64,000 nucleotides of DNA, from NCBI GenBank assembly GCA_963651445.1, contig CAVJPU010000007.1, forward strand, positions 33 through 64,032, in the 5' to 3' direction. Shown one piece after another: positions 6,978 to 57,192 of the stretch. The number at the start of each line of letters is the position of its first letter. The stretch's first letter is position 1. The notes beneath the pieces are model-generated. The model was not told the origin of the DNA and searched no databases. It saw nothing but the letters and a program-made list of their open reading frames with translations. The position numbers were made by a program, and so were the translations under genes. The DNA comes from a bacterium (GTDB lineage: Bacteria; Bacillota_I; Bacilli_A; RFN20; CAG-826).

Positions 6978-6989
6978 ATGAAAAGTATA

Positions 6990-7017: not shown

Positions 7018-7073
7018 CATGCTTAAAGAGATTTTCAAAAAGCGTATTGATAACTTAACAAAGCCGAAATAAA

Positions 7074-7098: not shown

Positions 7099-7103
7099 GA
7101 CAT

Positions 7104-28987: not shown

Positions 28988-29061
28988 TGGAGCGCGTGGC
29001 GGGAATCGAACCCGTGTGGCCAGCTTGGGAAGCTAGAGTTCTACCATTGAACTACACGCGC
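28988..29061 (-). tRNA. tRNA-Gly (anticodon CCC)
   Basis: Acceptor GCGCGTG/CACGCGC, anticodon loop TTCCCAA, T-loop TTCGATT, CCA encoded. Confidence 0.88.
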
Positions 29062-29094
29062 AGCAAAAAGATTATATACAAATCCGTCCATAAA

Positions 29095-29121
29095 AACAAA
29101 AAAACCGAGTGCTGACCTCGG
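29095..29121 (-). terminator. terminator after tRNA-Val
   Basis: ccgag-N7-ctcgg, followed by a T-run on the minus strand. Confidence 0.5.
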
Positions 29122-29139
29122 CCTTCTGTTGTAATAGAG

Positions 29140-29215
29140 TGGTGGGTGCTGCGAGGATCGAACTCACGACCTCCTGTACGTCAAACAGGTGCTCTCCCAG
29201 CTGAGCTAAACACCC
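29140..29215 (-). tRNA. tRNA-Val (anticodon GAC)
   Basis: GGGTGTTTAGCTCAGCTGGGAGAGC..., anticodon loop TTGACGT, CCA encoded. Confidence 0.9.
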
Positions 29216-29248
29216 ACTTAGCTGGACACGCTTTTCAGCGCGTTCATT

Positions 29249-29277
29249 ATTATATGAGCGAGCCTATCGGCACGCAA
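29249..29277 (-). promoter_or_regulatory. promoter for tRNA-Val
   Basis: Minus strand reads TTGCGT - 17 nt - TATAAT. Confidence 0.55.
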
Positions 29278-29300
29278 GCAGAAATTAACCGAATAAAGAG

Positions 29301-29326
29301 AAAAGAAAAAGCCCATTGTCTTGGGC
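29301..29326 (-). terminator. terminator after tRNA-Thr
   Basis: gccca-ttgtct-tgggc, followed by a T-run on the minus strand. Confidence 0.55.
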
Positions 29327-29344
29327 TTCATCACTTTTTATTAA

Positions 29345-29420
29345 TGGTGCCGACTAGCGGAATCGAACCACCAACCTACTGATTACGATTCAGTTGCTCT
29401 GCCAATTGAGCTAAGTCGGC
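29345..29420 (-). tRNA. tRNA-Thr (anticodon CGU)
   Basis: Acceptor GCCGACT/AGTCGGC, anticodon loop ATCGTAA, CCA encoded. Confidence 0.88.
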
Positions 29421-35907: not shown

Positions 35908-37980
35908 TTAAGCAGCAAAGACGTATCCCCAGCTAGCAGCAGTGTTGGAAACTGTGATGATGGTGAATAAGAGAGCGTTGATCAAGGAGCCGAGCCAGAT
36001 ATTTCCGGTCTTCTTGTAGAGAAGGCGAGAGATGATGGTGGCGAAGATAAGGACACCGATGGTCGGGAAGAGGACGATGTAGCCTAAGGCCATATTGCCC
36101 TGCCATAAGACACCAGTGGACTTGAAGGTGCCATACTGGATGGCGATGACTAAGACCAAGCCAGCAACGTTGAAGAAGGAGTTGATGGCGATGGTGGCCC
36201 AATCCGGGATGTTCTTGGCTCTGAAGGTCTGGTTGGCAATGCCGGAAAGGATGTAGTAAACGGCGAACCATGGCAAGTAGCGGAGAATGGTTGGCATCAT
36301 GCTAGAGACATTGAAGACCTTGATGACAAGCGTCCAAAGACGGAAGTCAACAACCCAGGCTTTCCAGTTGATGAAGACGACTAAGTAGAGCAAGAAGACG
36401 ACAATGGTGGCCAATAAGATGGTCTTAAGGGCGTTGCCGATAGAGGAGGCTTTGGCAGCCTCGAATGGATTGGCGGCATCAATTGGCTCTTTGCCATGGG
36501 CGACTCTGCCCTTATTGATGCAGTACTTAACGATGTAGGCGAGCAAGGTCACGATGCAGACGAAGATACCGCAAGCGGCAGTCCAGACGGCGACCCAGTT
36601 GGTTGTATCCTGTGGGAACAACTGAGAGTTCGGGAAGATCTTATCAGCCCATTCGGTGCAGAACTTCTGGATGGAGAATCCGGCGAAGATAGCGCAGACA
36701 ACGGCTGGGATCCAATAGAAGAGGTGAGAGTACCACTTCTTGAGAGGTTTCTTTTCTTCTTCGATGACTTCTTTGGTGACTTCGATTTCTCTGGTCGCGA
36801 TAGTGCCATCGGCGCCGGCGACGGCAACTCGTCTCTTCTTCAAAGACTTGAAGAATGGGATGGTGAGCATCAAGCTGACGCATGGGACGATTAAGGACAA
36901 CAAAGTGAGCATGCCGACGAAGGAGAATAATTCCTTGACGACCCAGGTCTGACGACCTTCAGCGATGTATTTGTGTCCGTTTGGGGTACCGAAAGCGCCA
37001 TAGAAGAAGTCTAAGACGTTTCTGGTGCTGGTCACTGACCAGTGGTTGAGTGGGTGGATTTCATCGGCTTCGTAGATAGCGCGGAACGGTTGGCCAACGG
37101 CTTCGCCCGGTTTCTTGTCGACGACAACGCCATTGACGTAACGAGCGCAATTCTGGACGTTGATTTCGGTTAATCCAGTGGTATCCATTCCAACGAAGCT
37201 GGCAGCGCCAGTGCTGTGAAGGAATTCTCTGGAGATGGTCTTTTCACCATTCAAATCCTTAGAGGTGAAGAAGAATTCGTCATCAGTGGCTTTTAATAAA
37301 CCAACGCTGACGTCAGAGGCAGCCCCCATGAAGGAGCTCCAACCTTGCATAAGGCCGGCCTTGATGATGTGATAACCATCGGCCGTGACGCTCTTACGGT
37401 TGAGAGTAAGAGTTTGCTGACTCATATCAGTGCGTAACGCCATAGCGGTGGTAAAACCACCCATGGAGTGACCGGAGATACCGATCTTGCTCTGATCGAC
37501 ATAGTCAAGGTTATATAAATACTTAGCGGATTCATATAAACCCTTGGTGGCCATCATGGCACCGGCGTCATCGTCGTTGTTGTAGTTACCATGACCTTCA
37601 CGATCGACGGTCAAGACGACGAAGCCTCTTCTCGCTAATTCGATAGCGTTAGGAAGCTGAAGTTCGCGATTGTTCAAATAGCCGTGAGTAAGGACGATGC
37701 CAGGCTTTTTGTTGTCGGCGGAAGCATCCTTAGGAACGAATAAGATACCAGACTTGACTTCGCCTTTGATTTCGAAGTCACCAGTGCCGGTGGCACCGGC
37801 GTCGTCTTTGTAGTTCAAGCTGATAGTGCCAGTATTGGTCTCATCTCTTAAATCGGAGACTTTGACACTGCAGCCGTCTGTTTGCACCAAAAATTGAGCG
37901 AAGCTGGTGACAAAGATCATGACGATTCCAATGATCAACCATAGCAAGCTCTTTTTGTGCTCTTGCCAATATTTTTTCAT
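35908..37980 (-). CDS. alpha/beta hydrolase domain fused to a large C-terminal polytopic membrane domain
   Basis: Start ATG 37980 (MKKYWQEHKK) after AAAGGAA. One N-terminal TM helix. Hydrolase motifs VLTHGY and nucleophile elbow GISGHSMGG. The last ~330 aa are strongly hydrophobic (8 or more helices). Confidence 0.75.
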   Translation of the reverse strand: MKKYWQEHKKSLLWLIIGIVMIFVTSFAQFLVQTDGCSVKVSDLRDETNTGTISLNYKDDAGATGTGDFEIKGEVKSGILFVPKDASADNKKPGIVLTHGYLNNRELQLPNAIELARRGFVVLTVDREGHGNYNNDDDAGAMMATKGLYESAKYLYNLDYVDQSKIGISGHSMGGFTTAMALRTDMSQQTLTLNRKSVTADGYHIIKAGLMQGWSSFMGAASDVSVGLLKATDDEFFFTSKDLNGEKTISREFLHSTGAASFVGMDTTGLTEINVQNCARYVNGVVVDKKPGEAVGQPFRAIYEADEIHPLNHWSVTSTRNVLDFFYGAFGTPNGHKYIAEGRQTWVVKELFSFVGMLTLLSLIVPCVSLMLTIPFFKSLKKRRVAVAGADGTIATREIEVTKEVIEEEKKPLKKWYSHLFYWIPAVVCAIFAGFSIQKFCTEWADKIFPNSQLFPQDTTNWVAVWTAACGIFVCIVTLLAYIVKYCINKGRVAHGKEPIDAANPFEAAKASSIGNALKTILLATIVVFLLYLVVFINWKAWVVDFRLWTLVIKVFNVSSMMPTILRYLPWFAVYYILSGIANQTFRAKNIPDWATIAINSFFNVAGLVLVIAIQYGTFKSTGVLWQGNMALGYIVLFPTIGVLIFATIISRLLYKKTGNIWLGSLINALLFTIITVSNTAASWGYVFAA

Positions 37981-38161
37981 GTGTTTCCTTTCTATTTGCA
38001 AGTTTTAAGAAATAGGTAGTCGGGCTAAAAATCCTCCCTAGAAAAGCCTTACGACCTATTTCAATGTTGAATTGATTTTAAACCCTTTCGATGAAAGGGG
38101 ATACATATTTTTTAATTGGATTAATAATGTCAATTTATTGAACGAGCGTTCACCTAAAAAA

Positions 38162-38211: not shown

Positions 38212-38850
38212 TTATTGCTCGTTATAGTCAGGCAATGAATATTCCTTCTCTTTTGTTTTCTTTAAAATTTTTGCGACTGGCTTGGTGTGTCTGGAAACGG
38301 CAAGCACCCTCTGGTAGGTGACAAGAGATGGTTTGTATTGGTTCTCAAGTTCCTTAAGCCTAGCGTTTTTTTCGTTGACCAATGGATCGACTTCGGCGCG
38401 TTTAGCGGCGTTGCTATTGCGGACATCGATATCGATTTTTTCTCTGATTTGGGTGGCGCCAGCGGTGTCCTCATCTTGTCTAGCGACTTTGAGGGCAGCA
38501 TTGGCCTGCTTCTTATAATCCTTAATCTCTTTAGAATACTTAGTATTTATATCTTTGATCTTCTTATCATATTCCGCGGAGATTTCTTTTCTCTGCTTGT
38601 TGTAATCGGCGACGGTGCCTTTTTTCATATCCCTTTTGGCGTTTTCGTTCTTCTCGATGGCGGAGTCAATGACCGTATCGGCGTCGCTTCCGACGATGGT
38701 GTATAAGAAAGAGACGCCCTTTTTGAGATTGATGGTGTAAATGATAAAGACCACCAAGGTAACGATGAGAGCGACGCCTAAGACGACGGCGATGATGGCG
38801 CCGACATCGACTTTGGATGAAGATTCAGAACTGGATAACAAATTGAACAT
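38212..38850 (-). CDS. membrane-anchored Lys-rich coiled-coil protein, unknown function
   Basis: One TM helix (IIAVVLGVALIVTLVVFIIY) followed by a K/E/D-rich helical region. Confidence 0.6.
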   Translation of the reverse strand: MFNLLSSSESSSKVDVGAIIAVVLGVALIVTLVVFIIYTINLKKGVSFLYTIVGSDADTVIDSAIEKNENAKRDMKKGTVADYNKQRKEISAEYDKKIKDINTKYSKEIKDYKKQANAALKVARQDEDTAGATQIREKIDIDVRNSNAAKRAEVDPLVNEKNARLKELENQYKPSLVTYQRVLAVSRHTKPVAKILKKTKEKEYSLPDYNEQ

Positions 38851-38884
38851 ACTTATGCCTCCGCGGCTTGATTATAGCCCCTAA

Positions 38885-38931
38885 AGAAAGAAAAGCCACC
38901 TAGAAGAAATTATATTTCTTACCAAGTGGCT
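38885..38931 (-). terminator. terminator closing the partner-switching cluster
   Basis: Long hairpin agccacctagaagaaat-tat-atttcttaccaagtggct, followed by a T-rich tract on the minus strand. Confidence 0.6.
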
Positions 38932-38940
38932 GCTTTTGGA

Positions 38941-39240
38941 TTAATTTATGGAAATAAGCTCGCTTAAGCCCGTCATTTTTAAGACTTCCATGACGACTCC
39001 ACCGACATTTGTCAAAGAGAAGCTTCCACCGTTCTTGGACATAGTCTTATAGCCAATCAAGAACAAGCGTAATCCCGAGGAGGAAACATATTCCAAGTCC
39101 TTCAAATCAAGCTCAAGGTCGCTTGTTTCTAAAAAGGCTTCTTGCATCGCCTTATCCAATTCAGGCGAAGTGACGGTGTCTAGTCTTCCTTTCAAAGAAA
39201 GGGTCAACTTGCCGTTATCGATATTCTTAACGATTTCCAT
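38941..39240 (-). CDS. STAS-domain anti-sigma-factor-antagonist-like protein (SpoIIAA/RsbV type)
   Basis: 99 aa. Conserved phospho-site region DLEYVSSSGLRLFL. Confidence 0.85.
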   Translation of the reverse strand: MEIVKNIDNGKLTLSLKGRLDTVTSPELDKAMQEAFLETSDLELDLKDLEYVSSSGLRLFLIGYKTMSKNGGSFSLTNVGGVVMEVLKMTGLSELISIN

Positions 39241-39249
39241 TATGTCTCC

Positions 39250-40431
39250 TTAGAGAATGAGATCATCCACTTCATCGATAGCCTTGTTGAGGTTACGGAA
39301 GTAGCCCTCTTCTTGCTTCTTAAATTTCTCTTCGACATCCAAGCCATGAGTAATCATATGCTGGAACAAACGGAGGTTGCTTAAGACCTGGACTTTCTTG
39401 GTAATCTCCTCGATGCGTTTCTCATCGTGGGTATCGAAATAATATTCGAGGGTTTTAAACCAAACGTGCTGTCCTTGTTCGTAGGTAAGACCGAGGAAAT
39501 CATGGATGTTCTCGCGATCGAATTCAGAAAAACCTAGATAGGCATCATATATGCTGGCGAACTCAAAGATTGGATCTCCGTGACAAAGGGTATCCATATC
39601 AATCAAAAGGACTTCCCCATTTTGCATCATGATGTTCTTGAAGTGGAGGTCGCCATGAAGCATATGATCGCTTTCGGGAATGGCTTCATACATCTTGGCT
39701 AACTTGTTATATCTATCTTCGGTCAGAAACTTTTTAATGAAATCAATCTTCTTTCTAAATACGGACTTTTGGTTAGCCATCTCTTCCGGTTTGACTTGGG
39801 CGTGATGGATTTTCTTCATTAAATCAACGCTTAGCTTGATGTATTTATCGATGTTGTCCGGATCGCGGATAACGAGTTTGGCAAAGGAATCGGCGTTGAG
39901 CATCTCAAAAACGGAGCCAAAGCTATCGCCGACTTTGACGATATCGAACGGGATGGCGGTCGGAATGCCTAAAACGAAGGCTCTTCTGGCCATTTTGATT
40001 TCTCTTTCGATATCCGATAGGGAATTGGAGTCGAAATAGACTTTGACGATGGTGTCAGGCGCGGTTCTATAGACTTTGCCGGTCGCACCTTGTCCGATTA
40101 ATTCAGCACCTTCCACCGAAATCTGACGATAAGCCTTTTGGACATTCATCAATTCGGTGAAGCCAGTCATCTCGAAGATGTCATAAACTTCGCTGGAGGC
40201 ATTGATGATTTTCATGCCAGGCTCAAGCTTTAAAACACGAAGGATGGCGCGTAAACCGGCGCTGGAAGTGTAAAGCAGCTTTTCGGCATCAATCACCAAA
40301 TCATTATGAGGATTGCTGGTGCGGATTTTCTCTAATTCAGCATCAAATTCAGCCGCGTTGCTGGAATCGATTCTCCCATCGACTGAAATGGTGAGGACGC
40401 CGTTTTCCAATTTGTAACTTAGATTTTCCAT
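39250..40431 (-). CDS. fusion protein: N-terminal STAS domain + C-terminal protein-kinase-like/aminoglycoside-phosphotransferase-fold (APH) domain
   Basis: Residues 1-~100 are STAS (LLYTSSAGLRAIL). The rest shows Gly-rich loop GQGATGKVYR, a VKV lysine region, catalytic loop HGDLHFKNIMM and metal-binding LIDMDTL. Confidence 0.78.
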   Translation of the reverse strand: MENLSYKLENGVLTISVDGRIDSSNAAEFDAELEKIRTSNPHNDLVIDAEKLLYTSSAGLRAILRVLKLEPGMKIINASSEVYDIFEMTGFTELMNVQKAYRQISVEGAELIGQGATGKVYRTAPDTIVKVYFDSNSLSDIEREIKMARRAFVLGIPTAIPFDIVKVGDSFGSVFEMLNADSFAKLVIRDPDNIDKYIKLSVDLMKKIHHAQVKPEEMANQKSVFRKKIDFIKKFLTEDRYNKLAKMYEAIPESDHMLHGDLHFKNIMMQNGEVLLIDMDTLCHGDPIFEFASIYDAYLGFSEFDRENIHDFLGLTYEQGQHVWFKTLEYYFDTHDEKRIEEITKKVQVLSNLRLFQHMITHGLDVEEKFKKQEEGYFRNLNKAIDEVDDLIL

Positions 40432-40433
40432 CG

Positions 40434-43253
40434 CTATTCTCCTTCCTTTTTAAGGAACTTGGTCAAAGTCAGAATATTCTCTGAGTTCTCGTATTTGTAT
40501 TTCATATCGTCCATCGTGTTCTTGACGATATAGATGCCAACCCCGCCGACTTTCCTATCTTCTAAGGAAACATCGAGGTTTGGATCGGCGTTGTGCAATG
40601 GGTTATAAGGAATGCCTTTATCGATGAATTTGAGATAGATGGCATTCTTTTCTTCGCGGTATTCCACCGACATCGTAAGTGGCCCGCCTTTGCCTTCATA
40701 GCCATGGTTGATGATATTGGAGACGATTTCGTCCAGAGCGACATCCAACTGATAAGTCGTCTTCTTCGGACAAGACACATTCGATAGCTCGTTGTTAAGG
40801 AATTCGGTCATTTGTTCGATATCCTCTAGCTTAGCTTCATCGAAATGGATGTTTGGGATTGGGATGACTCCCTTATATTGGAAGGCTAACATTGTGATGT
40901 CGTCGGCTTGTTTGGCGCCCGATGCGAATTCATCAATGTCTTTTTGGACCTTTAAGCAGAGATCTTTCATATCTAGGACCTCCATGTTGTTCAGCAAATT
41001 GAGCAAACGTTCTTCTCCGTATAAGGCGAGTTCATTGTTCACAGCCTCGGTTATACCGTCGGTATAAAGGAAGATGATGTCGCCTGGTTCTAACTGCAAT
41101 TGGTTTGAATGATACTTGAATCCATCCATTCCGCCTAAAATGAAGCCGGCTTTGGACTTAAGGTATTCGAATTTGCCAGTGGAGGCTTTTTTGATAAGGG
41201 GAGGATTATGACCACCGTTAACGAAGGTCAATACACCGGTTTCTAAATCGATATTGCCTTGCCAGGCCGTGACGAACATTCCGGCGTCGTTTCTATCACA
41301 TAAAGCCTTATTCGCCGAAGTGAATACTTCATCTAACGGATAATCGGCTTCGGTCATGGTTCTTAAATCCGCTTTGGCGCGCATCATGAACATAGCGGCT
41401 GGGATACCCTTGCCCGAAACATCGGCAATCATGATGTTAAATTTCTCCTCATTTCCGTAAAAATCATAGAAATCCCCACCAACTTCTTTGGCGGTTTTCA
41501 TGCTCGCATAAATATCGAATTCTTGTCGCTTGCTCACTTTTTCGGTGATAACCGGCAAGGAAGAGAATTGGATTTGTTTGGCGAATTCCAATTCGTCGTC
41601 AATTCTTTGATTGGCTTCAGCAATTAACTTCTTCATCGAATCGACGGTCCTGTTGATATCGTTGGAAAGGTAAGACATTTCCTGGGAACCTCTGACATCC
41701 ACCGCTAAAGAAAGATCTCCATTGGAGATAGCGTACAAGGTCTTATTGACATATTTGAGTTGCTTAACGACCGTTCTTTCGATTAAGGCATAGACCAAAG
41801 CAAAGATAACGGCGAAGACAATGACTTCCATGAAGGTGCTTAAATACAAAGACACATTGCGGTCCGCCAAAGCTTCTTCAACCGGAAGCAAGGAAACGAT
41901 GTAATATCCTTCGGATATAGCATAACTACAATAATATTTAGTCCCTTTGACACTGACTTCGAAAGCCTCGGAAATCGTAAAGGAATCTTTGCTACTTTGA
42001 AGCGGCCCGTCTTTCGTGAAGGAATCCGGCCCGGAAACTATTTGCTTATTCTGATCAAGGACAAGGACGCAGCCTTCTTTGCCGACATGGCGGTTCTTGG
42101 TTACGTCAGTGACTTGCTCGGCGATATCTTTTTGAAGACGTTCTCCGTCATATCCAACCTGAACGAATCCATCATCATAGGTAACGCCGGCGAACTTACG
42201 ATAAATCTCCTCATTGGAGCCAATCGGGCCGTAAGCCTGGACATAGGTTGTGGTTTTGCCGTCCAAAAGGCAAAGGAATTCTTCCGATTGATCGGAATTA
42301 TGCATATCCCAACCGATTAAGGACAAATCAGTGCTCTTAATAATGATGCCTTTGCTATTGACGACATGGATATCGGTGACATCACGTCTATCGGCAATAA
42401 GGTCGATGTCGTAGCCTGCGGTTAAATCGGAAGCAACGTCTTGGCAGATGGATAAGATATTCGCGTCGGACTTATCTTTGATGTCCGCTTCGGTATCGGA
42501 AATGGCTAAACTCAACGATTCTTTGGCCTCGCTTTTGGCTAATGAGGTTTGGAAGCTATAAACGAAGACGCCAGAGGCGATAAAACCGACAACGACCGTC
42601 AAAAGAAGCCATTGCTGAACGATTTTCGAGGTCTTGGTGTCCCTTACCTTGGTGAAAATCTTCTCCTTGTTAAGCAAGGTCATGACCAAGGTCGTAACCG
42701 CAAGAGACAAGCCGTTGCTTAAAATCATCGGGAGCGTAGCGGCCCTAACCACTTCCATGGCCTGAGCTTGAGCGCTGAAGTTGGTGAAGAAGATCATCGC
42801 CATATGGAAGACTTCCATAACCACCGCGGCGCAGAAAGCAAAGAAGATGCCAGGACGGCGTTCTTCGAGCATGAATCTACGGATTAACCAGGCGTAGGCA
42901 CCGGCTAAGACGGTAGAGACGCTGCAAGCGATTCGAGTAAAGGAAGAAACGCCCCAATAGACGCTGAAGAAACGTTCGACCCCACCGATAACACCGGCGA
43001 TCATGCCAGCCGGACCGCCAAACATAAGGCCAGCGGTCAAAACAGCCGCGTCACGGCAATTTATCTGGGCCCCAGAGATTGGGATGCCACATTCGGTGCC
43101 AAGAATAGCCAATCCGCCAAAGGCGAGGCCATAGATAATCTGTTTGATGAAGTATTTGAAATTTTTGAATTTGGTGTATTTATCAAGCAAAAAGAAAACG
43201 ACGCTGAGGACAACCGGAGATAGAGCTACTAAGGATAAATAGAAATACTGCAT
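40434..43253 (-). CDS. multidomain sensor: LytS-type 5TM receptor - Cache-like extracytoplasmic domain - HAMP - PP2C (SpoIIE/RsbU) phosphatase - HATPase_c (RsbW/SpoIIAB-like) serine kinase
   Basis: 5TMR_LYT-like INCRDAAVLTAGLMFGGPAGMIAGVIGG. ~270-aa loop between TM helices. PP2C motifs GGDFYDF, ADVSGKG, LYTDGITEA, DDITML. C-terminal kinase motifs LDEIVSNIINHGY, IDKGIPYNP, GGVGIYIV. Start taken at ATG 43253; the track TTG is at 43280. Confidence 0.85.
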   Translation of the reverse strand: MQYFYLSLVALSPVVLSVVFFLLDKYTKFKNFKYFIKQIIYGLAFGGLAILGTECGIPISGAQINCRDAAVLTAGLMFGGPAGMIAGVIGGVERFFSVYWGVSSFTRIACSVSTVLAGAYAWLIRRFMLEERRPGIFFAFCAAVVMEVFHMAMIFFTNFSAQAQAMEVVRAATLPMILSNGLSLAVTTLVMTLLNKEKIFTKVRDTKTSKIVQQWLLLTVVVGFIASGVFVYSFQTSLAKSEAKESLSLAISDTEADIKDKSDANILSICQDVASDLTAGYDIDLIADRRDVTDIHVVNSKGIIIKSTDLSLIGWDMHNSDQSEEFLCLLDGKTTTYVQAYGPIGSNEEIYRKFAGVTYDDGFVQVGYDGERLQKDIAEQVTDVTKNRHVGKEGCVLVLDQNKQIVSGPDSFTKDGPLQSSKDSFTISEAFEVSVKGTKYYCSYAISEGYYIVSLLPVEEALADRNVSLYLSTFMEVIVFAVIFALVYALIERTVVKQLKYVNKTLYAISNGDLSLAVDVRGSQEMSYLSNDINRTVDSMKKLIAEANQRIDDELEFAKQIQFSSLPVITEKVSKRQEFDIYASMKTAKEVGGDFYDFYGNEEKFNIMIADVSGKGIPAAMFMMRAKADLRTMTEADYPLDEVFTSANKALCDRNDAGMFVTAWQGNIDLETGVLTFVNGGHNPPLIKKASTGKFEYLKSKAGFILGGMDGFKYHSNQLQLEPGDIIFLYTDGITEAVNNELALYGEERLLNLLNNMEVLDMKDLCLKVQKDIDEFASGAKQADDITMLAFQYKGVIPIPNIHFDEAKLEDIEQMTEFLNNELSNVSCPKKTTYQLDVALDEIVSNIINHGYEGKGGPLTMSVEYREEKNAIYLKFIDKGIPYNPLHNADPNLDVSLEDRKVGGVGIYIVKNTMDDMKYKYENSENILTLTKFLKKEGE

Positions 43254-43330
43254 CGTTTGTATCGATATTTTGCAACGCAAAAATATCCGTCAAGATTTTA
43301 GCATTGAAGATAATTGATTAAAAGAATGGG

Positions 43331-43846
43331 CTAAATACTGGCTTGGGTGGAAGGAGTGCCGTAGACCTTGTCATAGACAATGACAATCTTCAAGGTGTCG
43401 CCTTTGCCGCTTCCGCCATCCTGCGGGGAAACGGAAATGGAAACGACCATCGGATCTTCGCGATCGGTGATCTTTTTGATAAGGAACGCACCTTGTCTGG
43501 CAGCCTGTTCGCCAGAAGAGAAAGTGATATAGTTTTCGTATTCCTTAGCAAGGGTGTAAACGAAACTTCTATTGGTGGCATTCTCTGGAAGAATGTCGGT
43601 GACGAAAATATAAGGCATATAGCAATCTTCGCCATCGGTGACTTCCTTATCCGGATCGTATTCGATGACGCATTGATGGATGCCACTATCCGTAGTCCAA
43701 TAACGGCTGTTATCGCTCGGCTTGATGGTAAGGCTGGTGATATAAACGACTGGGACGATGCCTTGTGGGCGGGTGCCGAAGACCGTGACGAAAACGATGG
43801 CCAAAAGACATATCGCGCTAACTAAGACGGCTACACCTTTTTTCAT
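43331..43846 (-). CDS. small membrane-anchored extracytoplasmic protein, unknown function
   Basis: Start ATG 43846 after GGAGG (MKKGVAVLVSAICLLAIVFV). ATGA overlap with the upstream permease gene. The track ORF is over-extended to 43972. Confidence 0.6.
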   Translation of the reverse strand: MKKGVAVLVSAICLLAIVFVTVFGTRPQGIVPVVYITSLTIKPSDNSRYWTTDSGIHQCVIEYDPDKEVTDGEDCYMPYIFVTDILPENATNRSFVYTLAKEYENYITFSSGEQAARQGAFLIKKITDREDPMVVSISVSPQDGGSGKGDTLKIVIVYDKVYGTPSTQASI

Positions 43847-45582
43847 AAGACCTCCCCCGTTTTGTAAATATATCTGACTTTGCGAACATAAAGAACGATG
43901 TTGAGAGCTAAATAGATAATTCCTAAGATGAGTACCTTGAATCCGGCGGTTGCTTGCAAGGATGAGAACCATACGATATGGTCCTGGAAGTAGTAATAAT
44001 ACAAGACCGCGAACAGGGCCGAAGTGATAAAAGCCATGATTACCGAGCGGTTTTCGTTCCTAGCTAAGAAGGAACCTCCGCCAAACGTGGAACTTGGATT
44101 GGTGAAGTCAAGACCGGCGCTGTATAGCAAATGACCAACATAGACAAAGACCATAGCCACGCCCATGAAGATCGTTCCTTCAAGCATTTCCGGGCGGATA
44201 TAGCCCAAGGCGATGGTGCAGGCCACTAAGCTCAAGCATCCAAAGATGCCAGGGATGATAAGTTTGCTTCCAACCGCGTAATGTTCTTTCAACGGATATG
44301 TTCTCGCCAATTTGAAGGCGCCGCCCTCTTCAGAATAGATGCGAGCGATGACCGAATTGGTGCTTAAGCCGATAAGCAAGGCGATCAATAAGCTGACGAC
44401 CTGAACCAAGGCATCACCGCGGCTATTCAAGTCCATCGCGGTGAAGATTTTGGCCAATAAGCCAATCAACAGCGGCAAAGCCAAGAAAGTTCCGATGTAT
44501 GAGGAAGAAATGCTGGAATCTTTGAAGAACAAGATGGCATCTTTCTTAATCTGCGAAATGAACGGAGGCAAAGGTTTATTTTCTTTCTCTTTGGCGTTCT
44601 TTCTGCCTTTGGCCTGGAGCTCTCCCGTTCCGCTGGCTAGCTTCAAATACAACGGGCTGGCCAAAGCCAAGGAAGCCACGAACAAGACGACGATAAGCCC
44701 GATTACGGCTAATAAAGTCCATAAGCCAGCGATAGCCGAACGAGACATGTAATAGAAACTGAATCCGGTGAAATTCCCCAAGTAAACCATGGAGACCTGA
44801 TAGAAGAAGCCGAGGTTGTTCTTGTAGTAATTCAAACCATTCTGGATCTTGGCGAAGTACGTGCCCCAGTTCGAGAAAATATCGATGTTATCCGGGACAA
44901 GGGCGATGACAGTGATGCATAAAGCCAAGATGATGGCCACCATGATGGACTTAACGATGATGCTGGCCCAAGTGTGGGTACGGATGCCTTTTTTAAGGTA
45001 ATAAACAGGGATACTTATGACCGAGGCCAATAACAACATTACCAAGTCGACCAAGGCCCAGATGACGAACAAGATGAAATACATATAGATTGGGTATTTG
45101 CTAACGGCGAAATAGCCAATCAAGAATGGGATTTCCAATAACAATGAGCGGCGATATGAGCTGATATAACGAACAGCCAATCTAGATAAGAACAAGGTGT
45201 TCCCATTGGTTGGTAAGGTAAGCAAGACTTTGTTGTCTTCGCCGAAATACAATTCCTCGGTTACCTTCGATAGAGAAGCAATGAACGAGATGATCAAAAG
45301 GATGGTCACCACGATGGATGGAACGCTCATTGGGACGAAGGCTAACAAGGAGAAGATACTGAAACGGATGCAAAAATAGAAGAAGACGTAAGATAAGGCG
45401 GCGACCACCGCGAAAGCCACCAAGCTCAGAACGATCTTGATGATGGCTTTTTTCTTATCTTTCTTCCAGTTGATGGACATGGAGTTGGAGAAAAGCATTT
45501 TCACCAACACCCAAAAGGCACGCCAATCAACCGCGAAAAAGCGTCGGAAAGCAGATGCTTTTTTATTTTCTAGCCTCTTCAC
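43843..45582 (-). CDS. polytopic membrane protein, putative ABC exporter permease (ABC_export-like)
   Basis: 579 aa with about 12 hydrophobic helices. Translationally coupled (4-nt overlap) to the preceding ABC ATPase-containing ORF. Confidence 0.7.
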   Translation of the reverse strand: MKRLENKKASAFRRFFAVDWRAFWVLVKMLFSNSMSINWKKDKKKAIIKIVLSLVAFAVVAALSYVFFYFCIRFSIFSLLAFVPMSVPSIVVTILLIISFIASLSKVTEELYFGEDNKVLLTLPTNGNTLFLSRLAVRYISSYRRSLLLEIPFLIGYFAVSKYPIYMYFILFVIWALVDLVMLLLASVISIPVYYLKKGIRTHTWASIIVKSIMVAIILALCITVIALVPDNIDIFSNWGTYFAKIQNGLNYYKNNLGFFYQVSMVYLGNFTGFSFYYMSRSAIAGLWTLLAVIGLIVVLFVASLALASPLYLKLASGTGELQAKGRKNAKEKENKPLPPFISQIKKDAILFFKDSSISSSYIGTFLALPLLIGLLAKIFTAMDLNSRGDALVQVVSLLIALLIGLSTNSVIARIYSEEGGAFKLARTYPLKEHYAVGSKLIIPGIFGCLSLVACTIALGYIRPEMLEGTIFMGVAMVFVYVGHLLYSAGLDFTNPSSTFGGGSFLARNENRSVIMAFITSALFAVLYYYYFQDHIVWFSSLQATAGFKVLILGIIYLALNIVLYVRKVRYIYKTGEVL

Positions 45583-48044
45583 GCGATTCCTTTCTCCTTC
45601 TTTTCTTCTTCGATCAAGGTGTTGGATTCTTCCTCGCTATCGCTGGTCAAACGGAGGAAGGTCTCTTCGAGATTCTCTCTTTCTTCTGGCTCAGCGTCCA
45701 AATCGATGCGTCTGATGAGGTCGCCTTTCTTGATGATGACGACTTCATCGCAGAGGTTTTTGACGACGTCAATGATGTGAGAGGAGAAGAAGACGATGTT
45801 GCCTTCTTTGGCATGCTCTCTCATGCATTCCTTGATTTGGTAGATGGAATTTGGGTCCAAACCGGTCATAGGTTCGTCCAAAATCCAAATCTTTGGCTTA
45901 TGGATAAGAGCGGCGATGATGGTAATTTTTTGCTTCATGCCATGACTATAAGACTTCATTGGCTTATCGTAACGATCACTCAATTCCAAACGAGTGACGA
46001 GGTTTTTCTCGATTTCTTCTTTCTGTTCCTTGGAGACATGATAAAGGTCGGCAATGTAGCTGATGTATTGTCTGCCGGTAAGATTTTCGTATAAGGCGTA
46101 GTTATCAGGGACGAAGCCGATTTCTTTTTTGGCTTCCAATGGTTCTTCGATGACGTTATGTCCGCAGACATCGATTTCACCACCTTCGAAACCATGGATA
46201 CCGACAATGGACTTGATGATGGTGGACTTACCCGCACCGTTCTTGCCAAGGAAGCCGTAGATCTTCCCGCCCTCTAAATCCAGAGAGAAATCTTTGACGG
46301 TAAAGAAATCGTTCCCGTGGTAACGCTTGGAAAGATGAGAGATGGTTAATTCGATCTTATCGCTCATGATTTTTCCTCCTTGGTGAATGGCTAAGTAAGC
46401 CTGATGACGGCTGATGGATTTTTCTTTGGCTAGACGGATGGCCGCTAATTCGTCGACCACTCTAAATAACAATTCGTATAAGAACCACATTCCGAAGGCC
46501 AAGACGACGTAAACGAGGTAATAAGATATGTCATAGGCCAAATGCAATACGTAGGTATATCCGTTGCTTTCCCAAGTAATCGTGGTCTTGAACAAGTTCT
46601 TGGCCCATTCGCCTAACTTATCGGCGACGAACGAGGAATTGATGAAGAAGAAGTCGCTGGAAATGCCATGGGCGGTAAGAATGGTGTTGACCGCCATAAC
46701 GAAGGCGAAATACACGAAGAACCCTATTTGGGAATAGAGGAAGTAACGCATCTTCGGTCGCTTATAAACGCCGCACATGACGATCAGAACCGGCATGAAG
46801 AAAGCATTTAAATGGTTGATGAAGAAAGCCACGATCTTCGGATCGAAAACATATAAAGATTCCGAGAAATTCGGCATCAATAAGGCTAAGAAAGCGCCTA
46901 ATACATTAACGAAGAAGGTGAAGTAATAAAGACCATAGCTAGCGAATAACAGAGTTATTGGCATGGTATACATGGCGGTGTTGCAAAGGTGCAACGGCCA
47001 AGATGATAAGTCCGTCCAGATATCATAACGGTGTATGGAGGCATAACCAATCAAAGTGCCTAAAGATATCTGAAGTAAGACGCCTCTTCTTTCCTCTTTG
47101 CTCATCGGATATAGCAAAGCGAAATACAAAATCGGCAAGATAAAGGCCAAATAGAGATAGATACGATGGGATAAGTTCTTCGGTCCCTTCGGATTGGTTA
47201 AGGTGTAGCCACCTAAATCAAGAGTCCTTCCAAAAAGAAGGGATGGGGAATAAGCGGTCGCCATCGTAAGCAACATCGGAATCAAAACGGCGATGATCTT
47301 CCTAATTTCTTTCTTGTTCAGTTTGAACTTTCCTTCCTCGAAAAGGCTATGGAAGTAATAGAAATCGATGATAGCCAATTCCAAGCCCATAAGGATGGAA
47401 CGATAGGAAACCGCATCGGTTCCTACTATTCCTTTAAGGACGATTGGAAAGGCTAGGGTAATTAAGATAGAGCCTGGCACGCCGATATAACGACGGACGC
47501 TTAAAGAGGATTCTTCCAAGTAGAAGGCGCTGACCAAAGTCAATACGACCAACGCAGTCCATAAATCAGAAGCCAAGGTGCCGATAACCGACTCGTATTT
47601 GGCTAGCATCAATGGGTCCAAACGAAGCATCAATAACTGGCTTTCGAGATGGAAGATGTCGTAATAAGTGAAAGAACCCGTTCCGCCATAGGCATCGACA
47701 TAGTCATAAGTGCCTCGGAAGAAATAGAAACGGGCGAAGAATAAGATTCCAACGATAATGGAAAGAGAGCAAAGAAGGTATTTGTAACGACCTTCCTTGG
47801 TCGCCAATCTGGCGCTCATTTTGGTAAGCCATTTGGATTTCTTAAAGGACTTCGCTTTATGGTCTTTGAGGTAGCGTTTAAGCAAGATAAAGCCACCAAT
47901 CAAGACCAATAAGAGCAAAATGAACGGCAGGAAATTAAGAGCGTAGTTGCTCTTGTTAATGAAAGATAAGCCAAATGAGAGGCCTATAACGACGAAAAGG
48001 CCCACAAAAAGGCAAATGTTCTTTTTTAGGGCCTTACTCGTCAT
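45579..48044 (-). CDS. fusion ORF: ~559-aa polytopic membrane domain (TIGR02206/YwaF/TMEM164-like segment with WPLHLC motif) + C-terminal ABC ATPase
   Basis: One continuous 821-aa ORF. ATPase part: GKNGAGKST, YSHGMKQK, IWILDEP. An internal AAGGAGG-N7-ATG (ATG 46367) sits exactly at the domain border. Confidence 0.78.
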   Translation of the reverse strand: MTSKALKKNICLFVGLFVVIGLSFGLSFINKSNYALNFLPFILLLLVLIGGFILLKRYLKDHKAKSFKKSKWLTKMSARLATKEGRYKYLLCSLSIIVGILFFARFYFFRGTYDYVDAYGGTGSFTYYDIFHLESQLLMLRLDPLMLAKYESVIGTLASDLWTALVVLTLVSAFYLEESSLSVRRYIGVPGSILITLAFPIVLKGIVGTDAVSYRSILMGLELAIIDFYYFHSLFEEGKFKLNKKEIRKIIAVLIPMLLTMATAYSPSLLFGRTLDLGGYTLTNPKGPKNLSHRIYLYLAFILPILYFALLYPMSKEERRGVLLQISLGTLIGYASIHRYDIWTDLSSWPLHLCNTAMYTMPITLLFASYGLYYFTFFVNVLGAFLALLMPNFSESLYVFDPKIVAFFINHLNAFFMPVLIVMCGVYKRPKMRYFLYSQIGFFVYFAFVMAVNTILTAHGISSDFFFINSSFVADKLGEWAKNLFKTTITWESNGYTYVLHLAYDISYYLVYVVLAFGMWFLYELLFRVVDELAAIRLAKEKSISRHQAYLAIHQGGKIMSDKIELTISHLSKRYHGNDFFTVKDFSLDLEGGKIYGFLGKNGAGKSTIIKSIVGIHGFEGGEIDVCGHNVIEEPLEAKKEIGFVPDNYALYENLTGRQYISYIADLYHVSKEQKEEIEKNLVTRLELSDRYDKPMKSYSHGMKQKITIIAALIHKPKIWILDEPMTGLDPNSIYQIKECMREHAKEGNIVFFSSHIIDVVKNLCDEVVIIKKGDLIRRIDLDAEPEERENLEETFLRLTSDSEEESNTLIEEEKKEKGIA

Positions 48045-48050
48045 AAATTA

Positions 48051-50480
48051 TTAAATAGCGTGATAGTCGCCTAAGATAACGCCGTAGTTGCTAGGACCGT
48101 TATAGGCGGTTGGGGTGGTTAACTGAGAAGCGGAGTAAACGTTGGTTCCGTTGATGGTAGCGGCCAAGAATCCGGCGCTCTTCATGATTTCACCTGGCTG
48201 ATAGCTGCTTGGAACGGTGACAGGAATGCTTAAGGCAGCCATGCCAGCTTTGATGGCGTAGTCGCTAGAGCAAAGGTAGTATTGCTGGGTGCTCTGATCG
48301 ACATTAACGATGCCAAATTCGTGTTTGCCTTCGCTATTGGTAGCGGCAAAGACCAGTTCGTTTTCGATGTTGGCATAGGCTAAGTTGTTGCCATAGAAGC
48401 TGCCGGATACGGCTTCGGCATAGGCATTGTAGGCGGTAGACAATTCTGCAGCCGAGGCAGCAGCCTGAGTGGCAGTCGCGAGAGCGGCGTAAGCGGTCAT
48501 AACCTCTTGGTAGCCATCGAGGTTGCTATAGATGATGTTGTTGCCTTTCTTGACGGTGACGTTGGTGCAACCTTCATCCAAAGACGGGAGCTGCAAGGCC
48601 TCATCTCCAGAAACAGGAAGGTTGACCAAGATAAGATTGAATTTCTTAACATCGTTCTTGGTTCTTAAAAAGGACATGCCGTAAGGGGTGAAAAGCCCGT
48701 CCATGGATTGCAAATTGCTGGCCATGGCGCTGGCGCTATAAGCGTCGAACCAACCACCCTTACCAGCGGTGAAGTTGGAAAGGAAGGTGTTTTCATCGAT
48801 ATTGACTTCAGTGGAGAAGGTCGGGGTGAAGCTTAAAGCGGAAACAACATCATCCGGCAACGGTTCAACCAGAGGATTGGTGAAAATCAATGGTCCACCG
48901 GCCTTGGTAATGTCGGAGTTCTTGATATCGCCTCTGGACTGGCCGAAGAAATAGAGGGCGGCGTTAGCAGAGTCGTTGAAACGGCAAGAGTCGATGTCAA
49001 GCTTCGGGCTGGTGTATTTGCCATCGATATACCTGCCGATTTTCTTAACGCCTCCTTCGGTGTAGGAAAAAGGGCCATCGGCCATGGCGGCCATATAGAA
49101 GCTGTTGACCAAGACGTTGTCGAGTTTGGCGTCGACGGCGGTTTTTAAGAACATCGGTCCCGCTCTTCTGGTGGTGGTAGAAGTGTCATCGACACCATTG
49201 TTTCCGGAAGCCTGGAGATCTTTAAAGATAATCTGGCAATCGAACGGATTCTGGTTGGCGCCGTAATAGCCATAAAACAAGGAAGCGTGGCAAGAGATTG
49301 GCTCGGATTCGCTCTGAGCGTGGCCTTGATCGTTCTCAGTCAAGACGTACGGGAACATATTCTCGTCATCTTCGTTGGTGTTGAAGGAAATCGTATGGAG
49401 GTTGCCATAAACAGTGGCGGTTTCGGCAGCGTCATCGAATTGATGGATGAAAATACGGACGGAATCCTTAAGGCTGCCTACGACACTTGCGTCACAGCCT
49501 TCGCTTTCCTGCCAGATGAAGACGGATGGGATATCGTTCTTGCCGATGGAGATATCGTTCTGAATAACGATGTTATCGGCATCTGGCAAGTTAAGTTCTT
49601 GTTTGAATTCATATACCGGGGTGAAGAAAGAGGCATCATCGGTATTGTTGTTGTAGAAAGCGAACAAATCGGTCGCTTTGCTGACGTTATACGCGTCGAC
49701 GACTTCGACGTTATAAACGATGTCTTTCTGGCCCGAATAGCTGAGGGTGATGGTGAAGGAACCAGTGACGTCGTCCTTGAACTTCAATTGGCCATCTTTA
49801 AGGAAAGAAGAGGCATTTTCGATATAGGAATCAACGACGAGGTCCATGCCTTCGGAGGCTAATTTCATCGTGGCGCCAGTTGGAATGGTGGTAAGCTCGG
49901 TAACCTCATAGGTTTCTTTGTTGAGACCATTCAATTCCGGAAGCAAATTGATGACGTTCATATTGCCGACATAGAAGGTAGCGGACTTCATGAAACCTTT
50001 TTCCAAGTTATCTTCATCAGAAGAAATCTTGTTGTTGACCTGATATCCGGTCGTGTAGGTGTAATTCGGGTTAGCGGCCCAAGAGGAAAGGGTATAGGCA
50101 TCGACGACGTTGTAATTCAAGGTGTCGGTGAATTCCTTGTTGCCATCGTTATAGGTGACGGTAAAGACTTTTCCGGTCGCTAACTCGGAAGTATCAATCT
50201 CGGTGTAGGTGATGCTGTCCTTGTTCTCAATCCATTTGAGGGTCTTCATCTTGTTGTTGTTCTCATCGAAAAGATCAATCGCCAAATTGTTGTAGTTTGG
50301 GGTGGATTTCTGAGAGAAGCTGGTCTTGATGGAACCAGAAACGATTTTAATCGAAGTCAATGTTGGCTGGACGCTGGAAGAATCATCGCTGCTAGAGCTA
50401 TTGTCTGGTCCGCAAGAGGCCAAGCAGGTAGAGGCGATGGCGCCTAGTGCCAATATGGTAATTTTGGTCAGTTTTTTCAT
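48051..50480 (-). CDS. large surface lipoprotein, unknown function
   Basis: Start ATG 50480 after GAGGAG (MKKLTKITILALGAIASTCLASCGP), lipobox LASC, Ser-rich linker, then ~780 aa that look beta-rich. Confidence 0.75.
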   Translation of the reverse strand: MKKLTKITILALGAIASTCLASCGPDNSSSSDDSSSVQPTLTSIKIVSGSIKTSFSQKSTPNYNNLAIDLFDENNNKMKTLKWIENKDSITYTEIDTSELATGKVFTVTYNDGNKEFTDTLNYNVVDAYTLSSWAANPNYTYTTGYQVNNKISSDEDNLEKGFMKSATFYVGNMNVINLLPELNGLNKETYEVTELTTIPTGATMKLASEGMDLVVDSYIENASSFLKDGQLKFKDDVTGSFTITLSYSGQKDIVYNVEVVDAYNVSKATDLFAFYNNNTDDASFFTPVYEFKQELNLPDADNIVIQNDISIGKNDIPSVFIWQESEGCDASVVGSLKDSVRIFIHQFDDAAETATVYGNLHTISFNTNEDDENMFPYVLTENDQGHAQSESEPISCHASLFYGYYGANQNPFDCQIIFKDLQASGNNGVDDTSTTTRRAGPMFLKTAVDAKLDNVLVNSFYMAAMADGPFSYTEGGVKKIGRYIDGKYTSPKLDIDSCRFNDSANAALYFFGQSRGDIKNSDITKAGGPLIFTNPLVEPLPDDVVSALSFTPTFSTEVNIDENTFLSNFTAGKGGWFDAYSASAMASNLQSMDGLFTPYGMSFLRTKNDVKKFNLILVNLPVSGDEALQLPSLDEGCTNVTVKKGNNIIYSNLDGYQEVMTAYAALATATQAAASAAELSTAYNAYAEAVSGSFYGNNLAYANIENELVFAATNSEGKHEFGIVNVDQSTQQYYLCSSDYAIKAGMAALSIPVTVPSSYQPGEIMKSAGFLAATINGTNVYSASQLTTPTAYNGPSNYGVILGDYHAI

Positions 50481-50644
50481 AAAAGTACTCCTCGTCTCCA
50501 AAAATTGGAGGATACCCAATCAAATATGTTACCACATTAAGCGTTTAATAAACCCTATATTTTCTCTTTAGGAGAAATAGTGAATGACAATTCTCTTAAA
50601 AAGCGTCGACAAACACATTGTTTAGGCTTTTCTCTATGAAAAGG

Positions 50645-57062: not shown

Positions 57063-57192
57063 TATGTTTTTTTTCCTAAACAAATAATAAGGGATATATA
57101 GAATTTTTATCAAGAGAATAGATATTCACTTTTTGGCATACATAAAATAAGTCCGACAAAGTCGGGCTCATTTTCGTTTTATTTTGTTGTGT

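Follow-up and report, generated by a model that had tools for sequence, protein, structure and literature searches.

A STAS domain fused to an APH-fold kinase in a partner-switch-like operon of a gut bacterium belongs to a widespread family associated with RSH-type hydrolases

We analysed a 64,000-nucleotide stretch of contig CAVJPU010000007.1 (assembly GCA_963651445.1, a CAG-826 bacterium of the Bacillota_I), referred to here as the window, and in it a three-gene operon at 43280..38941 on the (-) strand. In order of transcription the operon holds a sensor gene, a middle gene for a protein of 393 amino acids (aa) at 39250..40431, and the gene of a small free STAS protein, followed by a terminator; all features of the operon given below lie on the (-) strand. 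The middle protein, STAS-APH, joins an N-terminal STAS domain to a kinase domain of the APH/choline-kinase fold in one uninterrupted frame with an ATG start. Both halves scored above their Pfam cutoffs: STAS (PF01740, residues 9-99) with 39.3 bits against a cutoff of 22.6 (5.8e-10), and APH (PF01636, residues 110-306) with 48.3 bits against 23.2 (1.4e-12). A sequence-only reading of the locus had proposed such a fusion of 393 aa, and it is genuine.

The same reading had raised the suspicion of a frameshift at about 40120-40140. The domain junction (40096-40137) is in frame and encodes KAYRQISVEGAELI, of which K99 and R102 were invariant in an alignment of 60 homologues (50-94% identity). A search of 5.8 billion proteins (8000 candidates scored, 7971 significant) gave, among the matches listed, 120 homologues out of 120 with the same STAS+APH architecture in 387-395 aa, from independent assemblies. 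The few named ones were called 'anti-sigma factor antagonist' or 'phosphotransferase'. Scanning one genome per GTDB species, with relatives counted as a lower bound, we found that at least 586 species-level genomes encode a relative; among the matches listed, those nearest to the window came from Oscillospiraceae-like gut metagenome-assembled genomes (MAGs), at 84% and 67% identity. Carriers belong to the Oscillospiraceae, Acutalibacteraceae, Erysipelotrichaceae and Lachnospiraceae, with some Spirochaetia MAGs, and include the cultured Coprococcus catus VPI C6-61 and Sporofaciens sp. One contig, CAVBUY010000005.1 (loci L001 and L007), is labelled 'Alistipes shahii' (Bacteroidota) and carries a Clostridia-type operon with 63% identity and full synteny with the window; it is probably a mis-binned or mislabelled MAG.

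The full-length protein was modelled by AlphaFold2 as a confident single chain from the 60-sequence alignment (predicted local distance difference test, pLDDT, 93.6; predicted template-modelling score, pTM, 0.81). The short conserved linker and a pTM above the expectation for freely hinged domains hint that the STAS and kinase domains may be held in a fixed orientation. Split versions of the gene do exist (in locus L086, two APH genes come after a STAS gene of 71 aa) and could speak for an assembly or gene-calling artefact that had merged a STAS and a kinase gene through a missed stop or frameshift. Against this, the continuous frame, the recurrence of the architecture in all listed homologues and in hundreds of species, the conserved linker and the single-chain model make an artefact vanishingly improbable. 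We thus rejected a frameshift or missed stop at the junction, as fusion and linker are conserved across independent assemblies, and conclude that the fusion architecture is genuine, far beyond chance.

The fused STAS domain (40135..40407) showed a beta-beta-alpha-beta-alpha-beta-alpha pattern in the model and carries the phospho-acceptor motif YTSSAGLR (40249-40272; Ser57 codon 40261-40263). In an alignment of the family profile with 1auz and 1th8, Ser57 fell on Ser58 of Bacillus subtilis SpoIIAA, the target of phosphorylation by SpoIIAB; 1tid has an alanine in that column. The motif S57-A-G-L-R was invariant in the 60 homologues, and Ser57 was present in all of a more divergent set of 111 fused representatives, which were drawn singly from 50%-identity clusters and share 32-51% identity with the query. 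The domain reached 45.6 bits against TIGR00377, slightly under the cutoff of 53.45. The free STAS protein, STAS99 (99 aa, 38941..39240; Pfam STAS 2.6e-15), scored above that cutoff (70 bits) and is a paralogue of the fused domain with 32% identity. Its motif YVSSSGLR lies at 39067-39090 (Ser54 codon 39079-39081), and the pattern Y-x-S-S-x-G-L-R was invariant across 50 loci.

The kinase domain, supported by Pfam APH, TIGR02172 and AlphaFold2/Foldseek, covers residues 105-393 (39253..40119). The three motifs quoted in the sequence-only reading were all found at verified coordinates: the Gly-rich loop GQGATGKVYR (residues 113-122, G113-x-G115-x-x-G118; 40066-40095), the catalytic loop HGDLHFKN (residues 259-266; 39634-39657) and the DMD metal site, within IDMD (residues 277-280, D278-M-D280; 39592-39603). 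To these can be added the beta-3 lysine Lys130 (40042-40044), the alpha-C glutamate Glu144 (40000-40002) and a GDP motif starting at G285 (39571-39579). Positions G115, G118, K130, E144, H259/D261/H263/K265/N266 and D278-M-D280 were invariant in the 60 homologues, and S57, G115, K130, E176, H259, D261, N266, D278 and G285 were each 100% conserved in the 111 representatives. The catalytic residues remained 100% conserved whether the kinase was fused to STAS, standing alone or fused to an HD_4 domain. D261, N266 and D278 aligned with positions 198, 203 and 216 of the hygromycin kinase APH(4)-Ia, its catalytic base and two Mg2+ ligands. A non-catalytic pseudokinase was ruled out by this alignment and by the invariance of all catalytic residues. 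With the in-frame junction, neither of the two outcomes that the sequence-only reading had named as its refutation holds. Because the STAS phospho-acceptor serine and the full kinase catalytic set are conserved, both halves of the protein look functional.

A kinase-only AlphaFold2 model from a more diverse alignment (pLDDT 93.3, pTM 0.90) supported a bilobal kinase fold with a C-terminal helical substrate subdomain and gave a Foldseek probability of 1.00 to APH(2''), APH(3'), choline-kinase-family and 5-methylthioribose (MTR) kinase structures at template-modelling (TM) scores of 0.5-0.6. With either the full-length or the kinase-only model, all 50 top neighbours in the PDB were small-molecule kinases: APH(2''), APH(3'), APH(4), APH(9), capreomycin phosphotransferase, the amicoumacin kinase AmiN, a choline/ethanolamine-kinase-family protein and 5-methylthioribose kinase. 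Protein kinases were absent from these 50, and STAS-APH had no Pfam Pkinase match at E <= 0.1. The GDP motif follows the DMD site after only ~6 residues, which leaves no activation segment. Identity to the fold neighbours was 11-17%, with a best TM score of ~0.6. In NCBIfam the best match was TIGR02172 (114.4 bits, 6.9e-33, model positions 6-220 of 226; cutoff 228.2), an uncharacterised paralogous family first defined in Fibrobacter. Judged by these scores, the STAS-APH kinase is a sister group related to TIGR02172 and outside its membership. Fainter matches were to resistance kinases, SrkA, CcrZ, thiamine kinase, MTR kinase and CotS. The domain is a distinct deep branch of the APH/choline-kinase fold that belongs to none of its curated families; relatives of it formed 437 clusters (50% identity) at E <= 1e-30 and 2559 at E <= 1e-3.

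From the fold neighbours one could suspect an antibiotic-resistance kinase of aminoglycoside, macrolide or peptide type under stress control: APH(2''), APH(3'), APH(4), APH(9), capreomycin phosphotransferase and the amicoumacin kinase are the best structural matches, and the Pfam family itself is APH. We find this highly improbable. Identity and TM score (at most 0.6) are low, and the NCBIfam resistance equivalogs fell far under their cutoffs (APH(6)-I 27.3 against 325 bits, Mph(C) 18.3 against 550, APH(4)-Ia 12.4 against 725). Furthermore, hundreds of gut species, all strict anaerobes, carry the genes as a conserved chromosomal set that is accompanied by an alarmone hydrolase and in places embedded among ilv/leu genes (see below), in a context that is not mobile and gave no matches to PADLOC models.

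Members of the family that stand alone occur in heterogeneous contexts: with PNP_UDP_1 and a c-di-AMP receptor, with a DHO_dh-like gene, with TIM and HAD genes, or with UDG and HD_4 genes. These contexts are suggestive of nucleoside or nucleotide metabolism, without being decisive. In one of them (L085:572-2572) the kinase gene is translationally coupled to a PNP_UDP_1 nucleoside phosphorylase/nucleosidase gene and is followed by a CdAMP_rec c-di-AMP receptor gene; the arrangement recalls the MtnN-MtnK pair of nucleosidase and ribose kinase.

The first gene of the operon (40434..43280) encodes a sensor phosphatase/kinase of 948 aa from a TTG start, the true start possibly lying a few codons downstream. 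It comprises ~6 N-terminal transmembrane helices including a 5TMR-LYT region (42681-43154; Pfam 5TM-5TMR_LYT, 1.3e-24), an extracytoplasmic Cache-like region of ~230 aa (41859-42539; weak dCache_1 match), a transmembrane helix with a HAMP domain (41634-41783; weak HAMP match and hydrophobic segments), a PP2C/SpoIIE domain (40875-41513; Pfam SpoIIE, 1.5e-50) and a C-terminal HATPase_c_2 domain of RsbW/SpoIIAB type (40458-40835; Pfam, 3.3e-20). The NCBIfam SiaA-like (7.7e-22) and RsbW-like models both matched under their cutoffs. The metal-binding motifs of the PP2C domain are intact (GGDFYD at 601, DVSGKG at 620, TDGI at 740, DDIT at 793), and so are the kinase boxes (N-box E851..N855..H859, G1 D887xG, G2 G913xG). 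The genes are tightly packed: 2 nucleotides (nt) separate the sensor stop codon from the STAS-APH ATG, with the ribosome-binding site GGAAGGAG within the sensor 3' end, and a gap of 9 nt with GGAG in the spacer leads to the free STAS gene. The operon ends at an intrinsic terminator (38883..38931), a 17-bp imperfect hairpin followed by the U-tract UUUUCUUUCUUU (fold centroid -20 kcal/mol, z = -3.1 against shuffles). No sigma factor was found in the operon by open reading frame (ORF) list and Pfam. Its content can be read as one bifunctional sensor phosphatase/kinase, two putative STAS substrates and one extra enzyme.

Next we looked at the conservation of this module. ORFs were called in 84 related loci and searched with the domains of the window, then with iterated hidden Markov models (HMMs). 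The neighbourhood census was confined to those 48 species-level loci whose flanks reach at least 5 kb upstream and at least 2.5 kb downstream. The HATPase_c_2 kinase was present in 38 of the 48 (79%), a free STAS of ~99 aa in 34 (71%), an HD_4 gene in 30 (63%) and a PP2C in 29 (60%), and the gene combination of the window was the second commonest (11/48). The sensor part varies among related loci (5TMR-LYT, Cache_3-Cache_2 or none), PP2C and HATPase are fused or split, and natural HATPase-STAS-APH and STAS-APH-HATPase fusions were found (P0123 and P0136). Among the 38 HATPase loci, 16 had both PP2C and HD_4, 13 only PP2C, 9 only HD_4 and none lacked both, against ~3 predicted if the two occurred independently. 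HD_4 and PP2C may stand in for each other to some extent, but the hint is a faint one that carries little weight. A minimal module of a 135-aa HATPase, HD_4 and STAS-APH, in that order, occurs in Lachnospira- and Eubacterium-type genomes (L053, L072 and L082, about 4400-9800 of each locus), inside a branched-chain amino-acid cluster with a ketol-acid reductoisomerase-like gene on one side and aconitase-family (leuC-like) and leuD-like genes on the other.

The Pfam census of 101 genes flanking the modules in 80 loci revealed no recurrent Sigma70 family; a sigma factor may be encoded elsewhere in the genome. The sole recurrent extras were an SDF-type dicarboxylate/amino-acid symporter (7 genes, beside Cache-type sensors) and PTS_IIB (5 genes). 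Many members carry the NCBI name 'anti-sigma factor antagonist', the STAS domain scores against TIGR00377 and SpoIIAA models, and the HATPase domain resembles RsbW and SpoIIAB, as would be expected of a conventional antagonist acting towards a sigma factor encoded elsewhere, with the kinase domain as an accessory. Yet no sigma-factor family recurs in these flanks, the HATPase is no free anti-sigma factor but part of a membrane sensor-phosphatase, and the kinase domain is under strong purifying selection and also occurs without STAS, in HD_4 fusions. We regard the conventional antagonist as very unlikely. A defence system or toxin-antitoxin module was rejected too: PADLOC defence models matched none of STAS-APH, STAS99, the sensor and an HD_4 partner, and the genes sit in chromosomal surroundings of housekeeping type. 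The STAS-APH family has weak associations with TCAD9 and HD-CE.

A further, unexpected partner of the fusion bears on what the kinase might act upon. By clustering, 41 of 75 loci have a same-strand gene of ~190 aa immediately upstream of STAS-APH, a number that rises to about 46 of 75 (61%) once motif-positive ORFs are added; the gene often overlaps the STAS-APH start by 4 nt. This partner is an HD_4 protein (PF13328) that matches the N-terminal hydrolase part of RelA/SpoT (TIGR00691 positions 1-122, about 1e-25) and, among PDB sequences, the hydrolase domain of Thermus thermophilus Rel (2.7e-26). It is similar over its full length to the small alarmone hydrolases Lmo0812 (8e-22), RelH (8.8e-21 and 1.8e-17) and MESH1 (2e-13), and keeps the signature HxGxxRK...HPxE...HDxxED. 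Characterised HD_4 hydrolases of RelA/SpoT-homologue (RSH) type remove the 3'-pyrophosphate of (pp)pGpp and (p)ppApp (PMC10434055). In three loci a PHP-domain gene takes the place of the upstream HD_4, and PHP also occurs fused, in a STAS-APH-PHP representative with a PHP part similar to 3',5'-nucleoside bisphosphate phosphatase/RNase RNM (1.9e-33, under cutoff). Other rare fusions to the STAS-APH cassette involve HD-CE, a PolyA_pol/CCA-type nucleotidyltransferase head, GH3 and an Na+/H+ exchanger.

The link to the hydrolase extends to proteins without STAS. A search seeded with the HD_4-containing member P0210 gave 1176 matches at E <= 1e-10, of which the best 120 were nearly all HD_4+APH proteins of ~491 aa lacking STAS, from Lachnospiraceae, Ruminococcus, Oscillospiraceae, Coriobacteriia and Treponema sp. 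C6A8 (examples are P0271-P0389, with P0322 from Treponema sp. C6A8, and L092:6001-7476 and L094:6001-7476). They were named only 'HD domain-containing protein' or, by JGI, 'TIGR02172 family'. In the 117 HD_4-APH proteins among the matches listed, the kinase catalytic set was 100% conserved and 91 fitted the strict RSH-hydrolase motif. An HD_4 gene followed by a standalone kinase gene also occurs. A free STAS lies beside two of three HD_4-APH genes examined; it is orthologous to STAS99 (41-44% identity) and its Ser motif is intact. Taken together, gene neighbourhoods and fusions show a very strong evolutionary tie of the kinase family to RSH-type alarmone hydrolases and to STAS proteins. The window gene belongs to a much larger uncharacterised system of STAS, APH-like kinase and alarmone hydrolase, beyond what the sequence-only reading had in view.

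What emerges from these comparisons is a conserved, apparently sigma-less gene set of partner-switch type, in which a STAS domain with a canonical phospho-acceptor site is joined to an apparently active kinase of small-molecule type. As the partner-switch operon has no recurrent sigma factor nearby, an enzymatic output is its natural reading. We favour a partner switch that works independently of a sigma factor and has a STAS-gated small-molecule kinase as its output, with a probability of about 0.5 for this reading as a whole, in which the gating and the substrate are what we infer. The sensor would answer an extracytoplasmic or membrane cue and set the phosphorylation state of Ser57 in the fused STAS and Ser54 in the free one. 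The state of the STAS domain, joined by its short conserved linker to the kinase N-lobe, would then decide whether the kinase is active, be it by acting on the enzyme itself or by governing sequestration by the HATPase domain. Competition from the free STAS for the same HATPase/PP2C partner would be the partner switch proper. The kinase would phosphorylate a small molecule rather than a protein, most plausibly on a hydroxyl of a nucleoside, nucleotide or ribose-type metabolite, and in most related genomes the co-encoded HD_4 hydrolase (or PHP phosphoesterase) would remove its product and so reverse or complement the kinase step.

Several observations weigh against this reading. A TM score of ~0.6 at 11-17% identity means that the substrate class is not readable by homology, and some enzymes of the APH fold are protein kinases, for instance SrkA/YihE, RIO and Bud32. 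About a fifth of the related loci have no HATPase or PP2C within 5-7 kb, and the HD_4-APH enzymes with an adjacent free STAS come without HATPase/PP2C, which leaves the kinase of their STAS unaccounted for. An HMM built from 37 HD_4 partners detected no HD_4 in any frame of the 64-kb window, nor is there a PHP gene in it; because of this, the hydrolase link holds for the window by homology only. Finally, the control of the kinase by STAS phosphorylation is pure inference.

The sequence-only reading had seen the gene as a novel partner-switch output in the form of a protein-kinase cascade. The first part is upheld by the PP2C, the RsbW-like kinase and the second STAS of the operon, together with the lack of a recurrent sigma factor; the second gives way to what is more likely a regulated small-molecule kinase. 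A small-molecule substrate is the likelier one because of the fold neighbours, the lack of an activation loop and the massive linkage to a nucleotide (alarmone) hydrolase. We nonetheless weighed the possibility that the APH-like domain is a protein serine kinase acting on STAS (its own or STAS99) or on another protein, i.e.: a second STAS kinase or a true cascade, with HD_4 as an unconventional phosphatase or a passenger. A free STAS with an intact Ser motif accompanies the family even when HATPase and PP2C are not nearby (L092, L094 and L032, the last from Coprococcus catus VPI C6-61 with the order HD_4 > STAS-APH > STAS), Ser57 is 100% conserved even in such 'orphan' loci, and none of the 38 HATPase loci lacks both PP2C and HD_4, where chance would give ~3. 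There is a precedent in Rv1364c for a kinase fused to its substrate STAS, and weak NCBIfam and Pfam similarity to protein kinases of SrkA and HopBF1 type can be detected. On the other side, the canonical STAS kinase (HATPase_c_2) is already present in 79% of the loci, sometimes fused to STAS-APH itself, so that a second one would be redundant; the fold neighbours are uniformly small-molecule kinases and no activation segment exists; and every characterised RSH-type HD_4 enzyme acts on nucleotides, not on phosphoproteins (PMC10434055). We therefore judge a protein kinase unlikely, though it is the main rival reading.

The kinase-fold domain could also be an input, binding or turning over a nucleotide or metabolite and reporting to STAS, in which case the output would be a target of the HATPase or of the free STAS elsewhere. 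Sensory domains joined to STAS are familiar from such proteins as RsbR and YtvA, the latter with LOV-STAS architecture. The association with alarmone hydrolases could mean that nucleotides of (p)ppGpp type are sensed, and no downstream target is evident in the operon. However, the known sensory fusions have STAS at the C-terminus while here it is N-terminal, and the operon already has a dedicated membrane sensor. In addition, the full conservation of the catalytic base, metal ligands, beta-3 lysine and Gly-rich loop across more than 240 divergent sequences argues for catalysis, not mere binding. We consider a sensory role quite unlikely.

A bolder reading can also be proposed, in which an unrecognised phosphorylated nucleotide signal would be made by the APH-fold kinase, as its synthetase, and broken down by the RelH-type HD_4, as its hydrolase. 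We keep this reading open because a protein that joins HD_4 to the kinase resembles the pairing of hydrolase and synthetase in long RSH enzymes, and advance it only tentatively, as a rather unlikely proposal. The signal might be a guanine or adenine nucleotide phosphorylated at the 3' or 2' position, or the kinase might interconvert pGpp, ppGpp and pppGpp. If true, gut Bacillota, spirochaetes and Coriobacteriia would have a second, non-RSH route into alarmone-type signalling, and the STAS/PP2C/HATPase switch of the window would couple synthesis of the signal to an extracellular or membrane cue. Should the kinase make or modify a nucleotide signal at all, this would add a new stress and second-messenger branch in abundant members of the gut microbiome. 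Such a role would be directly testable, since the carriers Coprococcus catus VPI C6-61, Sporofaciens sp. and Treponema sp. C6A8 are in culture and the proteins are small and soluble.

Partner switching is textbook bacterial signalling, mostly understood as a way of freeing sigma factors. In the system described here the switch domain is welded to an enzyme. The enzyme family occurs in hundreds of species of gut, rumen and oral anaerobes, where its members go by no other names than 'anti-sigma factor antagonist', 'phosphotransferase' or 'HD domain-containing protein'. Even on a conservative reading it would offer a clean case, found in nature, of a fused catalytic domain under the control of STAS phosphorylation. 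The sequence-only reading had recognised no characterised example, and in the full-text literature, whose coverage leaves out most subscription journals, we found none either: no description of STAS-APH or HD_4-APH proteins, and no paper mentioning TIGR02172. The 2011 RSH classification makes no mention of HD_4-APH or STAS-APH fusions. This absence is no proof of novelty, and a prior description may exist.

Around the operon, the window contains further genes of note. Upstream of the sensor lie four same-strand genes (43331-50519, (-)), syntenic with the switch operon only in the closest relatives (L001, L005 and L007). They encode an 822-aa protein without Pfam match, an 821-aa protein with TMEM164 and ABC_tran, a 579-aa polytopic membrane protein without Pfam match and a ~173-aa protein without Pfam match, and may form a co-regulated transporter-like system. 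Past the terminator lies the gene of a 212-aa protein (38212-38850, (-)), syntenic in those close relatives too. The protein has a single N-terminal transmembrane helix and a long tail that is rich in Lys and Glu and coiled-coil-like; its sole match was a weak ZorA/MotA-like one in PADLOC (E = 0.0036). A 697-aa protein is of unusual architecture (35908-38001, (-)), with an N-terminal alpha/beta-hydrolase (Peptidase_S9/PETase-like) and a large C-terminal polytopic membrane region. For three long ORFs, at 24397-27435 (1012 aa), 54627-57113 (828 aa) and 48051-50519 (822 aa), all (-), Pfam gave no family at E <= 1e-4. Beside a cluster of three tRNAs (28991-29420, (-)), out of seven tRNAs in the whole window, lies the gene of a protein (27825-28871, (+)) that combines a Fic/DOC domain with a C-terminal regulator domain like that of DIP2311.

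Compared with known systems, the module shares with SpoIIAA/SpoIIAB/SpoIIE and the RsbV/RsbW/RsbU of Bacillus a STAS protein with the aligned serine, a GHKL-type HATPase_c_2 serine kinase and a SpoIIE-family PP2C, encoded together. It differs from them in having no sigma factor, in the fusion of kinase and phosphatase into one membrane sensor, and in its two STAS proteins, one of which is covalently joined to a second, unrelated kinase-fold enzyme. The module of the window works like a partner switch, minus a cognate sigma factor nearby. Multidomain regulators offer a further parallel: in Mycobacterium tuberculosis, Rv1364c combines a PP2C and an RsbW-type kinase, so that the state of STAS is set by one polypeptide. 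In SypE of Vibrio fischeri, which acts on SypA, the STAS kinase and PP2C likewise sit in one polypeptide (PMC10120452, PMC4517449). In both cases the STAS protein acts on something other than a classical sigma factor. Their sensors are of REC or PAS type where the window has 5TMR-LYT/Cache/HAMP, and their STAS proteins bear no kinase-fold enzyme.

On the enzyme side, the domain shares with the APH/choline-kinase/MTR-kinase clan (PF01636) and TIGR02172 the bilobal fold, Gly-rich loop, beta-3 lysine, alpha-C glutamate, HxDxxxxN loop and DxD metal site, while its identity to solved structures is 11-17% and it falls under the cutoff of TIGR02172 and of every equivalog model. Within the clan, fusion to an N-terminal STAS domain or to HD_4 is unique to this branch. 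Eukaryotic-like Ser/Thr kinases have an HRDxKxxN loop and a DFG-APE activation segment, whereas the loop of the window protein is HGDLHFKN and no such segment follows. With RSH enzymes the related loci share a bona fide RSH-type hydrolase domain in the HD_4 partner, and the HD_4-kinase fusions mimic the long-RSH layout; the hydrolase partner is here an APH-fold phosphotransferase, not a (p)ppGpp synthetase of nucleotidyltransferase fold, and the window locus has no hydrolase.

The sequence-only reading had stated that in known partner switches the STAS protein only sequesters the anti-sigma kinase, a view that is outdated: SiaC activates the diguanylate cyclase SiaD in Pseudomonas aeruginosa (PMC8457831), and CapS is a repressor made of STAS and a winged helix-turn-helix (wHTH) that is released by Ser phosphorylation (PMC13373217). 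SiaABCD likewise comprises a HAMP-PP2C phosphatase, a kinase and a small phospho-switch protein, and its output is an enzyme making a nucleotide signal, with no sigma factor (PMC8457831, PMC7647112); SiaC binds a separate diguanylate cyclase, while in the window the switch domain is fused to the APH-fold output enzyme. CapK/CapS has an N-terminal STAS on the output domain, and phosphorylation of its conserved serine by a GHKL kinase alters CapS output (PMC13373217). That output is a wHTH DNA-binding domain over immune operons, whereas in the window it would be a kinase-fold enzyme with no PADLOC defence signal. Systems such as SiaABCD and CapK/CapS, in which the switch controls an enzyme or a fused output, are the closest in function to the STAS-APH module.

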